Assembly (NCBI GenBank): GCA_934098455.1
Contig: CAKOOU010000001.1
Coordinates: 1-58,630, forward strand
Source: an uncultured Bacilli bacterium
Lineage (GTDB): Bacteria > Bacillota_I > Bacilli_A > RF39 > UBA660
Direction of reading: 5' to 3'
DNA: 58,630 nucleotides
The translations under genes and the position numbers were made by a program. Below are positions 42,870 through 58,630 of this stretch, in pieces. A model generated the notes under the pieces. It did not search any database. It saw nothing but the letters and a program-made list of their open reading frames with translations, and was not told the origin of the DNA. Numbering within the stretch: position 1 is the stretch's first letter; every line of letters starts with the position of its first letter.

Positions 42870-43111
42870 CAAAATAACAAAAAAAAGAATACATTATATT
42901 CTTTAACAATAAATAATTTAACAATCAATCCAATTTTTAACAATACTTTTATAATAAAACATTTTATAATAAAATTAAATCAAGATAATAAATTTTATTC
43001 GAATTAATAAAAAAATTTTTACCATTGATTCAAATACTATTTTAATATATAATATAATTAAATTAATTTTGATATTAAAAAAATAATGGTTTTAACATGC
43101 AAAAAAATATG

Positions 43112-43140
43112 TTGACAAACCAAATTATATTGTTTATAAT
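43112..43140 (+). promoter_or_regulatory. Consensus sigma-70-type promoter
   Basis: TTGACA (43112..43117), a 17 nt spacer, then TATAAT (43135..43140), about 245 nt upstream of the 43386 ORF. Confidence 0.6.
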
Positions 43141-43240
43141 AAGTTCACTAAATTAGTTATTGCATTTGTTTACATTTACATAACATATTGTATAACAATT
43201 TATGTAATATATTATGCAAAATAGTAGTATAATATTAATG

Positions 43241-55346: not shown

Positions 55347-56345
55347 CTACAAATATCCCTTATAACTATTAACAACGACCTTATACTTATCGATATCATA
55401 TTTTTTCAAATACTTTAACTTTCTTCTAATTCTAACTTTATTTTTATATTTTACTTTAATAACTAACTTATTACTATCATTAAGAAAAAATTTATATCCT
55501 AAAAAACAAAATCCCTTCTTAGAGTCATATACTCTAGTTTTATTATTAATACTTAGTCCTAATTCATTTAATTTTTTCTTAATTATTTCTAAACAATATA
55601 ATAAATATCCATAATTATAATCTATCAAAACAAAATCATCAACATACCTAACATAATATTTAATACCTAATTTTTCTTTTATAAAATGATCTATATCATT
55701 TAAATAAAAACTAGCAAGTATCTGACTAATATAACTACCTATATTCAATCCCTTATTATATTTATATAAATAATCTTTATCTTCTACTAATTTACTTATT
55801 CTATCATTAACATAATCTTTATTAGTGCTATCAATAATATTCTTAATAATATTATATATATCTTTATCAACAATACTATATAATTTATTAAGTAATATAT
55901 CATGATCTATATTAAAAAAATATTTCTTAATATCAATCTTCAATATATAAAACTTATTATGTTTTAACTTAATACTATTAATATATTTTTTTATTAACTT
56001 TACACCATAACTACTACCCATATTCTTACGAGTAGCAATATTAGAATTAATTAATTTTTTATCAATAATATCTACCAAATAATATTTACATATCAAATGA
56101 CTAACAATCTTATCATTAATATTTTCACTCATAATAACTCTTAACTTAGGTTCATATATTAAAAATATATTATATATTCCATGCCAATATTTACCATTAA
56201 TTAACTTATTATATAAATTAATTATATTACTACTAATAAACATATCATATTTAACTAACTTATCTCTATTCTTAGTATTCTTCTTTATATCATAATAACA
56301 ATCTAATAAATTATTTATAGTAACTACATCACTTATTCTTTTCAT
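55347..56345 (-). CDS. DGR-type reverse transcriptase
   Basis: RT motifs EPKLRVI, LKIDIKKYFFNIDH, GLNIGSYISQILASFYLN (the [ILV]GxxxSQ motif diagnostic of DGR RTs), YVRYVDDFVL and FCFLGYKF. Confidence 0.9.
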   Translation of the reverse strand: MKRISDVVTINNLLDCYYDIKKNTKNRDKLVKYDMFISSNIINLYNKLINGKYWHGIYNIFLIYEPKLRVIMSENINDKIVSHLICKYYLVDIIDKKLINSNIATRKNMGSSYGVKLIKKYINSIKLKHNKFYILKIDIKKYFFNIDHDILLNKLYSIVDKDIYNIIKNIIDSTNKDYVNDRISKLVEDKDYLYKYNKGLNIGSYISQILASFYLNDIDHFIKEKLGIKYYVRYVDDFVLIDYNYGYLLYCLEIIKKKLNELGLSINNKTRVYDSKKGFCFLGYKFFLNDSNKLVIKVKYKNKVRIRRKLKYLKKYDIDKYKVVVNSYKGYL

Positions 56346-56670
56346 ACTTTATTAACCCATACACAATTCTTTTTATTTCAATCAAATAATTACTAACACT
56401 AACATATCTTTTATTCTTAATAATCCCTTTATTAAAACATATATAAACATAATAATTTAATAAACTAACATTAACTAATATATCATTTAATATATCTAAT
56501 TTACTATCATATATTTGATACTTAAATATATATTTAATATTATTATACATACAACTATCTATTTCATTCTTTAAAACATATTCTTTATTAGGAAAACAAC
56601 TTAATATATATTTATTAATATAATTATTTATTAAATAACATTTATTTAATAAATTAAAATTATAATTCAT
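56329..56670 (-). CDS. avd: Avd-like accessory variability determinant (small helical-bundle protein)
   Basis: 113 aa, basic and predicted all-helical, placed directly upstream of and overlapping the RT gene by 17 nt. The pattern ...NEIDSCMYNNIKYIFK...LVNVSLLNYYVYICFNKGIIKNKRY...IEIKRIVYGLIK fits four-helix-bundle Avd proteins. Confidence 0.6.
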   Translation of the reverse strand: MNYNFNLLNKCYLINNYINKYILSCFPNKEYVLKNEIDSCMYNNIKYIFKYQIYDSKLDILNDILVNVSLLNYYVYICFNKGIIKNKRYVSVSNYLIEIKRIVYGLIKYEKNK

Positions 56671-57067
56671 CCAAATACCTCATAATATCTATATATTTAT
56701 TTATATCACTATCTAATATATCTTTAACTTTATTATTAATATTTAATATATAATTATCTAAATTATATTTACTATTACCTAATATTAAATATTTATTATA
56801 ATTATTTATTTCATGATAAATATATTTTATATCATGATCACTATTATATATTAAATAATCTATACTATATTCATCCAACCTACATTCTATACTTTTAATA
56901 ATATTAACAGGAAAGCCTACTTTATTATTATGTAATCTATAATTAAACAAATATCCAACAACAATAGCATTATTATAGAAACATCTATAAAAATTACCAT
57001 ATTTCATTAATATAACTGTATTTTTATATTCACTTCTTAATTTTTTATTTATCTCTATTAATCTCAT
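56660..57067 (-). CDS. MutS-domain-I-like small accessory protein (MSL-type DGR accessory gene)
   Basis: VILMKYGNFYRCFYNNAIVVGYLFNYRLHNNKVGFPVNIIKSIECRLDEYSIDYLI aligns by eye with MutS domain I ([29 protein letters not shown]...[25 protein letters not shown]). Start set at ATG 57067, which follows GGTGA; the ORF-track start at 57106 merely reads through the GT repeat. Confidence 0.6.
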   Translation of the reverse strand: MRLIEINKKLRSEYKNTVILMKYGNFYRCFYNNAIVVGYLFNYRLHNNKVGFPVNIIKSIECRLDEYSIDYLIYNSDHDIKYIYHEINNYNKYLILGNSKYNLDNYILNINNKVKDILDSDINKYIDIMRYLDEL

Positions 57068-57084
57068 ATTATCACCATAAATAT

Positions 57085-57117
57085 AATATAACACACACAC
57101 ACACACACACGTGTCAA
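57085..57117 (-). promoter_or_regulatory. Promoter-like element whose spacer is a (GT)10 microsatellite
   Basis: The minus strand reads TTGACA (57117..57112) C (GT)10 TATATT (57090..57085). The spacer is 21 nt, and the last TGT gives a TGn extended -10. Confidence 0.35.
57091..57110. repeat. (AC)10 / (GT)10 dinucleotide microsatellite
   Basis: acacacacacacacacacac, a perfect 20 bp tract. Confidence 0.98.
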
Positions 57118-57154
57118 GTATTTTTTACTATTATTATGTAAATTATACAAAAAA

Positions 57155-57205
57155 AGTAAGCCATATAACAATATAGATTACAATAAACTATATTGTGTGC
57201 TTACT
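57155..57205 (-). terminator. Long imperfect hairpin plus T-run downstream of TR (terminator or DGR-RNA 3' structure)
   Basis: agtaagc (57155..57161) pairs with gcttact (57199..57205), and aacaatatag (57167..57176) with ctatattgt (57188..57196). On the minus strand the stem is followed by six or seven T residues. Confidence 0.5.
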
Positions 57206-57360
57206 CTATTTTTAGTTTAATTATAATTAAATCAGGGAATAAATCTTGTTTCCAATCTATTTAGATTAATGCAAAGTGCATTTACTTCTTCTCATTAAAA
57301 ATTATATATTCTTAATACTCAGTATAGCAAATATTATTTAATATTCTACATAGTAGGAAT

Positions 57361-57488
57361 CTAGGGCGGAAAGCGTTAGTGTTGTTGACGTTGTTGGTGT
57401 TGATGTTACCATTCGACCCATTAACGTTCCACTCGTTCGCATTCGAACCATTATAGTTGTTCGGAGACGAAAGCCACCAATTAGAAGT
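57361..57488 (-). repeat. DGR template repeat (TR), non-coding
   Basis: 128 bp homologous to 57674..57801. On the minus strand it is rich in AAC triplets (conceptual SNWWLSSPNNYNGSNANEWNVNGSNGNINTNNVNNTNAFRP). Confidence 0.9.
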
Positions 57489-57514
57489 ACCCAATTTTTT
57501 TAGATTTACACCCA

Positions 57515-57547
57515 CACATCCACGGCGCGATTTTGCCGTTAGATGTG
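57515..57547 (-). other. GC-rich nested hairpin immediately 5' of TR (in transcript orientation)
   Basis: cacatc (57515..57520) pairs with gatgtg (57542..57547), and acggc (57522..57526) with gccgt (57535..57539). Confidence 0.5.
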
Positions 57548-57551
57548 CCCT

Positions 57552-57578
57552 CAAAAAGCATTTGCCTATGCTTTTTGA
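57552..57578 (-). terminator. Hairpin after the stop codon of the DGR target gene
   Basis: caaaaagcat / atgctttttg form a 10 bp stem with a 6 nt loop, 20-50 nt downstream of the stop at 57601. Confidence 0.45.
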
Positions 57579-57600
57579 ATCCTTTATCCTAGTCTTAACT

Positions 57601-58630
57601 TTACTTAACTGTGTAAGGATTTGAACTAGTTCCATCTCCTCCATTTATTAGCAATTCAGCCTTTAGATTGATACTAGGGCGGAAAGCGGCAGTGTTGCGG
57701 ACGTTGAAGGTGTAGATGCCACCACCCGACCCATTAACGAACCACCCGTACGCATACGAACCATTATAGCTGAGTGGAGACGAAAGCCACCAATGAGAAG
57801 TTATAGATGAATTATACAAATAATATGATTTGTTTGTTTGACCAGATTTATAAGCACCAGCATATGCTGCCTCATCCACAGTAAGTAGGCCTATCGGATA
57901 TTTTAAATTTCCATTAGTCTCTTTTCCATTTGGTAATGTACTTTTTGTTGTTGTATATCTTGAATAATTATCGTTTGCCTTCTCTGCACATTTGAATGTT
58001 GGTGTTGATGTTGTTATTGCTGTTGTTCCAGTGCTATATAGTAATCTTTCTACTGAAGAATAATATGTTATATTTGTTCCATATCCTTTTGCAGTATTAT
58101 TTGAACCGATTCCACTTTCTGCTAGTGTTTTATCTCCACAAAATAATGTGTCACTTAAATAGTTTGCATAATTTGTTTTTAAATTATCTTCATACCATTT
58201 GTCTACTGCGATTTTTATTGTACTATCATTTTTATTCTCATGTGTAGCATCATACGTTGCACTTCCTGGTGTTCCATACATATATCCTATATATGCATTA
58301 TCATTAGAGTTAGTATTAAATGCAGTTTTTATAGCATTACCACTTGTATCTTTTGCAACATCATCTAGTATAAGTCTTATTGAACCGTCTCCATTTATTC
58401 TTACTATTCTCCAAACTTTATCTGCAAATGATACATAATTATCTATTACATTCCCTCTAAAATAATAACTTGTTCCATAATCATCTGGCGCTGTATTTAA
58501 TACATGTTCTGTTTCTCTTGATACACTTGTAAATGTTGTTACTTCACTTCCTAATGTTGTTCTTGTACTGTCTGTTTGTGTTTTTGCTGTATTTATTATA
58601 GTACTAGCAAGTGTATCTGTTCCAAATGGT
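57601..58630 (-). CDS. DGR target protein (5' end outside window) with C-terminal C-type-lectin-like variable region
   Basis: I checked this frame codon by codon and it stays open from 58281 to the window edge. The C-terminus is ...SHWWLSSPLSYNGSYAYGWFVNGSGGGIYTFNVRNTAAFRPSINLKAELLINGGDGTSSNPYTVK*. The WWL.SP...(A/V)FRP framework is typical of DGR-diversified CLec-fold ligand-binding domains. Confidence 0.85.
   Translation of the reverse strand, partial: PFGTDTLASTIINTAKTQTDSTRTTLGSEVTTFTSVSRETEHVLNTAPDDYGTSYYFRGNVIDNYVSFADKVWRIVRINGDGSIRLILDDVAKDTSGNAIKTAFNTNSNDNAYIGYMYGTPGSATYDATHENKNDSTIKIAVDKWYEDNLKTNYANYLSDTLFCGDKTLAESGIGSNNTAKGYGTNITYYSSVERLLYSTGTTAITTSTPTFKCAEKANDNYSRYTTTKSTLPNGKETNGNLKYPIGLLTVDEAAYAGAYKSGQTNKSYYLYNSSITSHWWLSSPLSYNGSYAYGWFVNGSGGGIYTFNVRNTAAFRPSINLKAELLINGGDGTSSNPYTVK
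57674..57801 (-). repeat. DGR variable repeat (VR) inside the target gene
   Basis: Aligned with TR at an offset of +313 there are 21 mismatches, and 20 of them fall where TR has A on the coding strand. The identical GC-rich 3' end GCTTTCCGCCCTAG (rc of 57674..57687 / 57361..57374) is IMH-like. Confidence 0.9.

Follow-up and report, generated by a model that had tools for sequence, protein, structure and literature searches.

A slippage-prone (GT)10 tract in a putative promoter of the accessory and reverse transcriptase genes of a gut Bacilli diversity-generating retroelement

How diversity-generating retroelements (DGRs) are restrained and released is an open question, and the locus described here raises it in concrete form, as it offers a sequence-defined candidate control element with natural alleles in public data. 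The locus lies at one end of a 58,630-nt stretch of DNA from an uncultured Bacilli bacterium (contig CAKOOU010000001.1 of assembly GCA_934098455.1; hereafter the window) and carries a target gene with a variable repeat (VR), a template repeat (TR) and the genes of a MutS domain I-like protein (MSL), of the accessory protein Avd and of a reverse transcriptase (RT). Between the TR and the MSL gene, a (GT)10 microsatellite separates two promoter-like hexamers, and a first-pass annotation of the window had proposed that this tract is a phase-variable switch on hypermutation. Msl-containing DGRs of Bacteroides are tightly regulated at the transcript level by regulators that are unknown, and the transcription of avd, TR and rt correlates with how active a DGR is, while the signals and mechanisms "await discovery" (10.1101/2024.11.15.621889). 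Does the tract control this DGR? The comparisons presented below suggest that it is the conserved, naturally polymorphic spacer of a putative sigma-A promoter, and that it probably sets how strongly the mutagenesis machinery is expressed.

Read on the minus strand, the region consists of an A-tract, TTGACA (57117-57112), a single C (57111), (GT)10 (57110-57091) and TATATT (57090-57085), after which come ATATTTAT, GGTGAT, AAT and the ATG of the MSL gene at 57067 (Table 1). The stretch that separates the -35 from the -10 hexamer, i.e., C plus (GT)10, is 21 nt long, and 17 nt lie between TATATT and the MSL start codon; every factual statement of the annotation about this arrangement was borne out by the sequence. 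Tandem Repeats Finder described the tract as a repeat of period 2, with 10.0 copies and 100% matches. As had been noticed at first reading, no other long dinucleotide microsatellite is present: the tract is the sole non-AT dinucleotide repeat of at least five units within the 58,630 bases (G+C content 23.8%), and among the remaining dinucleotide runs none is longer than (TA)5 or (AT)5 (n = 5). Five matches to (GT)6 with at most one mismatch were observed, all in the tract, versus 0.17 expected from dinucleotide-preserving shuffles. The annotation had also pointed to the terminal TGT as the TGn of an extended -10 element, and the tract end in fact fits the longer TRTGn motif, since TRTG is found one base 5' of the hexamer (TGTG-T-TATATT, 57095-57085) and is kept in any tract of at least two units. 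The meaning of this Gram-positive motif is known from the literature (PMC2613000) and was reportedly described by Voskuil and Chambliss.

TTGACA occurs only nine times on the two strands of the window; a generic promoter scan was uninformative in such AT-rich DNA (41 sites found versus 50 expected). The promoter reading is reasonable, because the two modules AAAAAATAC-TTGACA and TATATTATAKTTATGGTGAT (which holds TGTGT-TATATT) are invariant in every lineage with an intact RT, while the adjoining 30-42 nt just 5' of the A-tract vary freely in sequence and occur in six different lengths; TATATTATAKTTATGGTGAT is unchanged across all lineages. An internal reference for the promoter style of this genome is offered by a textbook sigma-A-style promoter at +43112 (43100-43145, plus strand), composed of AAAAAAATATG, TTGACA, a 17-nt spacer and TATAAT and, judged by its sequence, built like the tract promoter, with an A-tract followed by TTGACA. 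The sigma-A model appears appropriate, as the closest RT relatives in GTDB belong to uncultured gut Bacilli and to Erysipelotrichaceae metagenome-assembled genomes. An informal comparison with consensus sequences of sporulation and alternative sigma factors gave no convincing match to the tract region.

The MSL, avd and RT genes plausibly need a promoter of their own, because a conserved terminator-like hairpin followed by T7 is located between the TR and the tract. In eight sequences, the 19 pairs predicted for this hairpin (57205-57155) are all kept except for an A-C mismatch in L042; at two of the pairs a one-sided change yields a G-U wobble, and the T-run follows the hairpin in all lineages. 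The TATAAT at 57147-57142, which the annotation had named as an alternative start and which follows TTGTTA after 18 nt, was considered as the main promoter and rejected, because it shares bases with the end of the terminator T-run and has not been conserved among the sister lineages. A different role would follow if the tract acted as RNA, that is as (GU)n within a longer leader transcribed from upstream, or if it were a neutral microsatellite of single origin persisting by descent. Terminators are rarely complete, and the TR, the conserved spacer RNA and the operon lie on one strand, so read-through is possible. The conserved hairpin and T-run argue against the RNA role, as does the fold of the 306-nt TR-to-MSL RNA, which was no better than those of shuffled sequences (z = -1.44) and gave the tract no conserved pairing partner; neutral persistence, in turn, is hard to square with a length that stays constant over 2-8% divergence, given frequent slippage (PMC4085013). 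We regard this explanation, in either form, as very unlikely.

The position of the MSL start codon also bears on the anatomy of the region. An open reading frame through the tract, starting at GTG 57106 (product 'MCVCVLYYIYGDN...'), was rejected, as it has no ribosome-binding site and its length tracks the GT number and the start chosen by the gene caller; the conserved GGTGAT-N4-ATG indicates that this start is an artefact and marks the true start of MSL. At the same place a mini-ORF of four codons (ATG GTG ATA ATA TGA, 57064-57078, minus strand) begins approximately where a transcript from TATATT would start, and its stop codon overlaps the MSL start (ATGA). Sister lineages retain both its frame and the overlap (ATGGTGATGATATGA, ATGGTGATATTATGA), and it could be a leaderless upstream open reading frame coupled to MSL or a mere by-product of the Shine-Dalgarno sequence.

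For the comparative analysis, 36 other distinct contigs were gathered by exact-protein look-ups from ENA and from Logan assemblies of many samples; the overall spacer tally (n = 37, including the window) is enriched in length variants, as these were deliberately fetched. The tract is located upstream of MSL in 36/36 of these contigs, whose MSL proteins are 71-100% identical to that of the window, and an N-terminal protein proxy reveals it in relatives down to 67% identity. Its presence in dozens of independent assemblies from different studies argues that it is not an assembly artefact. Neither a non-AT dinucleotide repeat nor a comparable promoter was found in 27 DGR loci of GTDB (L001-L027, RT 29-62% identical), and a scan for the flanks (TTGASA, variable gap, GTTATATTATANTTATGGTGAT) gave no match in GTDB species genomes or IMG/VR and one in JGI metagenomes, a duplicate of L046. 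On these comparisons, the tract is a conserved feature and a recent innovation of this DGR clade.

Its length, as the annotation had asked to be checked in related genomes, is not fixed. Together with an intact RT, spacers of 17, 19, 21, 23 and 25 nt (8, 9, 10, 11 and 12 units) were found. The 21-nt spacer prevails (27/37; the window's species, L030, and sister lineages with C(GT)10 or T(GT)10), and each of the other lengths was seen once: 17 nt in L040, with (GT)8, 19 nt in the intact DGR L060, with (GT)9, 23 nt in L041, with (GT)11, and 25 nt in L057, with (GT)12. The samples behind these variants are ERZ4561222 (Hadza_MoBio_hadza-A-D_D_14_1620) for (GT)8, ERZ27271064 for (GT)9, SRR29134158 for (GT)11 and ERZ28573656/SAMN11098522 for (GT)12. 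In RT-deleted contigs the spacer is either 19 nt and interrupted (n = 4, L050-53, TTGAGA followed by C(GT)7AT(GT)) or 11 nt, with (GT)5 (n = 2, L054-55). The annotation's expectation that the loss of two units would create a 17-nt consensus spacing is matched by a natural allele, as the (GT)8 contig L040 shows 0 mismatches over 809 aligned nt with the window and the 4-nt tract deletion is the sole difference. Likewise, L057 with (GT)12 and L058 with (GT)10 differ at 9 positions in 1750 nt. The unit number thus varies between near-identical genomes, the variants being single contigs, one of them at 1.5x coverage.

Contigs obtained by look-ups unbiased for tract length (via Avd and the 135-aa MSL) have the 21-nt spacer in 12/12 cases, which speaks against other alleles becoming fixed often. 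A further view of the tract is provided by public MSL proteins, many of which (P0002-P0068) carry artefactual M(CV)n N-terminal extensions, because gene callers start at a GTG or ATG inside the tract (57091-57106). Identical MSL alleles in protein databases differ only in the count of tract-encoded Cys-Val pairs, and in the window's species the 148-aa form was found in 26 contigs, and the 146-aa and 150-aa forms in one contig each. This protein variation, although itself an annotation error, can be read as a proxy for repeat length and as independent evidence for tract-length polymorphism.

Despite these variants, (GT)10 and the 21-nt spacer are common to four haplotype groups that are 2-8% diverged in DNA, the window's group including L030. 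In L030, a GT-to-AC change left the length of the spacer as it was. In a dinucleotide tract of 10 units, slippage is far more frequent than indels in ordinary DNA or base substitutions, and the constancy of 21 nt over such divergence therefore suggests selection on tract length. Slippage is known to be length-dependent, unselected tracts drift towards shorter lengths, and long ones depend on fluctuating selection (PMC4085013). The locus would thus represent an unusual case of a hypermutable tract apparently held at a fixed length by selection.

Constancy of length is explained equally well if 21 bp is the working configuration of the promoter, the two halves being re-aligned on a signal, so that control would be conditional and not stochastic and the length variants would be mildly deleterious noise. 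Candidates for the re-alignment are a MerR-like activator that distorts the spacer, or supercoiling-driven Z-DNA or slipped DNA in the 24-bp ACAC(GT)10. In favour of this explanation, the 21 nt remain constant over the 2-8% divergence while adjoining DNA gains indels, and L030 and the T-type lineages change the first bases of the spacer yet keep its length and the alternation of purines and pyrimidines. In L030 (1655-1690), (AC)3(GT)9 replaces the (AC)2(GT)10 of the window through a GT-to-AC double change at the palindrome centre (equivalent to 57109-57110), which preserves both the 21-nt spacer and the 24-bp alternating run. The decay of the tract where the RT is deleted (see below) would also be expected.

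Promoters of the MerR type have a spacer of 19-20 bp with a centred dyad operator. The tract promoter resembles them in its consensus-like hexamers and over-long spacer, but the spacer is 21 nt, no centred dyad is present (the sole palindrome, ACACGTGT, is off-centre and reads ACATGT in the sister lineages), no MerR-family gene was found among the neighbours, and no regulator gene of any kind was found between the DGR and the adjoining housekeeping genes. The single-strand DNA fold at the tract, hairpins included, was no better than shuffles, and we know of no natural bacterial promoter that works through Z-DNA in its spacer, which also counts against such a mechanism. Moreover, L060 possesses an intact DGR with a 19-nt spacer. 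Taken together, we consider a working 21-bp configuration, the main rival of the reading we prefer, unlikely.

A second line of evidence for constraint comes from the lineages in which the RT gene is internally deleted. Residues 182-284 are missing in both, and L050-53 additionally lack residues 23-77, the catalytic region being included in the losses. Both lineages have deviant tracts, shorter or interrupted, which are fixed in several samples; the constraint on the spacer thus appears to follow RT integrity. The -35 hexamer is mutated, to TTGAGA, only in the RT-deleted lineage L050-53, and L054-55 still have TTGACA and TATATT with (GT)5 between them. The anatomy of the region, its conservation, the natural length variants and this link with RT integrity are matters of direct observation. 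Both RT-deleted lineages (L050-53 and L054-55) retain the TR, the VR, MSL and mostly avd, and represent decaying DGRs at the same chromosomal site.

The retention of TTGACA and TATATT around only (GT)5 in an RT-deleted lineage is in line with another possibility, namely that TGTGT-TATATT forms an extended -10 promoter independent of the -35 hexamer. Only the last two GT units would then matter, tract length would have little effect, and TTGACA with its A-tract would serve something else or be unused. The 3' end of the tract is a perfect TRTGn element, and TGn promoters tolerate non-optimal spacers better than others (PMC2613000). This explanation, however, accounts neither for exactly 10 units of a slippage-prone 20-nt tract in diverged lineages, nor for the deviant tract lengths of the RT-dead lineages, nor for the strict conservation of the A-tract and TTGACA beside a freely varying stretch, and in our opinion it is quite improbable.

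The reading we prefer, with middling confidence, is that of a slippage-tunable sigma-A promoter of MSL-avd-RT, which selection holds in a detuned, low-expression state from which stronger alleles rarely arise. A spacer of 17 nt is optimal, and small deviations strongly cut promoter recognition (PMC2613000). The promoter would be composed of two strong halves, the A-tract with a perfect -35 on one side and the TRTGn-extended -10 on the other, which in the (GT)10 allele are 21 nt apart, 4 nt over the optimum, so that RNA polymerase would be unable to contact both together and the extended -10 alone would probably sustain a low basal transcription of the operon. Slipped-strand mispairing would alter the tract in 2-nt steps and create heritable, reversible alleles, and the loss of two units would yield a near-ideal 17-nt promoter, with a presumed burst of RT, Avd and MSL expression and of VR mutagenesis. 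Selection would park intact elements at the detuned length; in one consistent model, contraction-prone, length-dependent slippage would press the tract down on a fitness wall, located at 9 or fewer units and set by excess expression of the DGR enzymes, and once the RT is dead the wall would be gone and the tract would shorten or become interrupted. A contraction bias combined with such a wall would account for tract lengths that peak sharply at 10 units, with 11 and 12 rare and 8 and 9 very rare, and for the short tracts of RT-dead elements. That the promoter is used, how strongly each allele is expressed, how fast alleles switch and how mutagenesis responds are points that we infer.

Several points weigh against this proposal. 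Between strains, the tract varies far less than classical contingency loci do, as the unbiased 12/12 contigs with (GT)10 exemplify; the putative ON allele, (GT)8, was seen once, in a contig of 1.5x coverage, and library or polymerase chain reaction stutter might still lie behind the single-contig variants. A change of two units is needed to reach 17 nt. The pile-up at exactly 10 units, and not a spread over 10-13, requires the extra assumption of contraction bias plus wall, and it fits equally well with 21 nt being the functional spacing itself. Transcription starting about 7 nt after TATATT would make the leader just 9-11 nt long and place the Shine-Dalgarno sequence at its very 5' end, which is unusual. 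Finally, the extended -10 may free the promoter from its -35 and make spacer length less important.

A stronger version, close to the original idea of a phase-variable switch, would make the tract a true contingency switch over targeted hypermutation, in which rare slippage to (GT)8 or (GT)9 gives subclones with over-expression of RT, Avd and MSL and diversification of the target, and the return to (GT)10 freezes a successful variant. We put this forward only tentatively. That part of the idea which concerns a conserved, naturally polymorphic spacer with the predicted allele in existence has stood, whereas free ON/OFF toggling does not agree with (GT)10 in all 12 unbiased contigs. More speculatively, looped-out GT units could shorten the paired spacer to 17 bp, and MSL might recognise such loops, which would couple this protein to its own promoter.

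The proposal of a detuned promoter can be compared with the record of the DGR itself. The TR and VR of the window are 84% identical and differ at 20 TR adenines and one non-adenine position; the ratio of adenine to non-adenine differences is 20:1 in the window, 22:0 in L030, 15:0 in L060 and 24:1 in L061-63. The VRs of the window and of the 96.6%-identical strain L030 differ almost only opposite TR adenines. These patterns mark the DGR as real and as active in the past. On the other hand, the VR is identical in all VR-spanning contigs that are 99-100% identical to the window, all of which have the 21-nt spacer, which suggests that the DGR is quiet in its prevailing state; the VR is likewise identical within the clonal set L061-63. 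Such constancy fits low expression from a detuned promoter but would be equally typical of regulated DGRs in general. Only about 0.6 kb separates the tract from the VR. A single long read or read pair can therefore phase the tract allele with the VR haplotype, so that gut metagenomes already at hand allow a direct test of the link between promoter state and mutagenesis.

The features of the locus are summarized in Table 1. An RT gene adjoining the TR and an accessory avd gene were both recognized with Pfam, and MSL has been described as a class of DGR accessory proteins whose carriers form architecture D (PMC5758913, Wu et al. 2018); by its gene content, the locus is a genuine chromosomal DGR of this MSL-containing architecture. 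The window can be assigned to the chromosome because it carries housekeeping genes, i.e., those of PheT, a class II aminoacyl-tRNA synthetase, formate-tetrahydrofolate ligase and the GerQ spore-coat protein; the genes adjoining the DGR encode LemA, an MBL-fold hydrolase, GerQ and the class II tRNA synthetase. The target gene runs off the window; in L028 its product has about 540 aa, is hydrophobic over a stretch at the N-terminal end and carries the VR close to the C-terminus. Protein identity between lineages is 71-82% for MSL, 91-98% for Avd and 92-94% for RT, and MSL thus seems either to evolve much faster than the other two or to have been exchanged. In its MutS-like motif, GNFYRCF, set against the GDFYELF of Escherichia coli MutS, the Glu of the Phe-X-Glu mismatch-binding motif is replaced.

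The segment directly 3' of the TR probably constitutes the spacer element of the DGR RNA; its motif GATTGGAAACAAGRTTTATTCC recurs upstream of avd in the distant DGRs L002, L010 and L023 (RT about 50-56% identical), and an Rfam search of 56500-58000 with E-values up to 1 gave no match. On the other side of the TR, after the target gene stop codon, a hairpin AAAAAGCAT-N6-ATGCTTTTT (57551-57578), flanked by an A-run and, on the opposite side, by a T-run, resembles a bidirectional terminator that separates the target gene from the TR, and no clear TR promoter was seen in the window between this hairpin and the TR. Far from the DGR, the only other long simple repeat of the window, a (C)11 homopolymer (416-426, context 400-460), makes up an arm of the inverted repeat TATATCTCTTTATA-C11 ... 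GGGGTTGGGAGAGAGATATA, which is followed by T-rich sequence downstream of the ORF 623-1822 and looks like a bidirectional terminator as well.

Table 1. Features of the DGR locus, with positions in the window
Feature	Position	Strand	Evidence or remark
DGR reverse transcriptase gene (332 aa)	55347..56345	-	Pfam RVT_1, 1.2e-19
avd (bAvd-like accessory protein, 113 aa)	56329..56670	-	Pfam bAvd, 1.4e-9, 38.9 bits, just below the 40-bit cut-off
MSL gene (MutS domain I-like DGR accessory protein, 135 aa)	56660..57067	-	Pfam MutS_I, 9.6e-6, 26.2 bits, cut-off 20.6
Shine-Dalgarno-like GGTGAT (57076-57071) and MSL ATG (57067-57065)	57065..57076	-	Sequence, open reading frame
Putative extended -10, TGTGT + TATATT (TRTGn-type -16 element from the 3' end of the tract)	57085..57095	-	Sequence
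Spacer, C + (GT)10, 21 nt, mutable element	57091..57111	-	Sequence, repeat finder, shuffles
-35-like hexamer TTGACA, perfect consensus	57112..57117	-	Sequence; conserved in all intact-RT lineages
A6 tract (AAAAAA-TAC), UP-element-like, directly 5' of the -35	57121..57126	-	Sequence; AAAAAATAC-TTGACA conserved
Terminator-like hairpin (AGTAAGC...GCTTACT) + T7, between TR and putative promoter	57149..57205 (hairpin 57205-57155)	-	Predicted pairing
Highly conserved non-coding segment directly 3' of the TR, ~155 nt	57206..57360	-	Near-invariant across lineages
Template repeat (TR), 128 nt	57361..57488	-	Repeat family D1; adenine-specific differences from VR
Target gene, runs off the window end, VR at its 3' end	57601..58630	-	Weak DUF6273 match
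Variable repeat (VR), 3' end of target gene	57674..57801	-	Repeat pair with TR

Compared with known systems, the locus resembles the DGRs of architecture D (PMC5758913) and the Msl DGRs of Bacteroides in having a target with a C-terminal VR, the TR, MSL, avd and RT on one strand, with adenine-specific differences between the repeats. It departs from them in that the TR is located upstream of MSL-avd-RT and is set apart from these genes by a terminator-like hairpin and a dedicated putative promoter. A repeat-containing promoter is mentioned neither in PMC5758913, where the term 'promoter' is absent, nor in 10.1101/2024.11.15.621889, where its two occurrences refer to an inducible promoter. The remark of the annotation that no such tract had been described as a control on a DGR agrees with our literature search, which revealed, among the top matches, no paper joining DGRs with simple repeats; as far as could be found, repeat-based variation of a promoter spacer has not been described before for a DGR.

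With the extended -10 promoters of Gram-positive bacteria (TRTGn, or '-16 region'), the tract promoter shares the TGTGT directly 5' of TATATT. Unlike in the usual TRTGn promoters, the TRTG is here the end of a microsatellite, and a perfect -35 with an A-tract stands at what would be a non-functional distance. Few repeat-based promoter switches are known to us in Firmicutes, and the locus would add one, with a GT/AC unit.

The closest likeness is to the systems in which the two promoter hexamers, -35 and -10, are separated by a simple repeat, such as the (TA)n of hifA/hifB in Haemophilus influenzae and the poly-G of porA in Neisseria meningitidis (PMC3899988), which is the established phase-variation mechanism that the annotation had invoked; the poly-C of opc in N. 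meningitidis and the poly-A of vlp in Mycoplasma hyorhinis may be likened to it as well. As in the hifA/B-type systems, slippage in a repeat between the hexamers would change their spacing heritably and reversibly, and the alleles differ only in unit number. Unlike in contingency loci with broad length spectra, the common allele is strongly modal across lineages and two steps off the optimum. The repeat unit differs (GT/AC, neither TA nor a homopolymer), as does the host, which belongs to the gut Firmicutes (class Bacilli) and is not a Gram-negative pathogen or a mycoplasma, and what the genes specify is a machinery for mutagenesis (RT, Avd and MSL) and not a surface antigen. If the stronger version, that of a true contingency switch, holds, the tract would gate DGR mutagenesis in a stochastic and heritable way and would be the first regulatory mechanism to be defined for a chromosomal DGR of bacteria.

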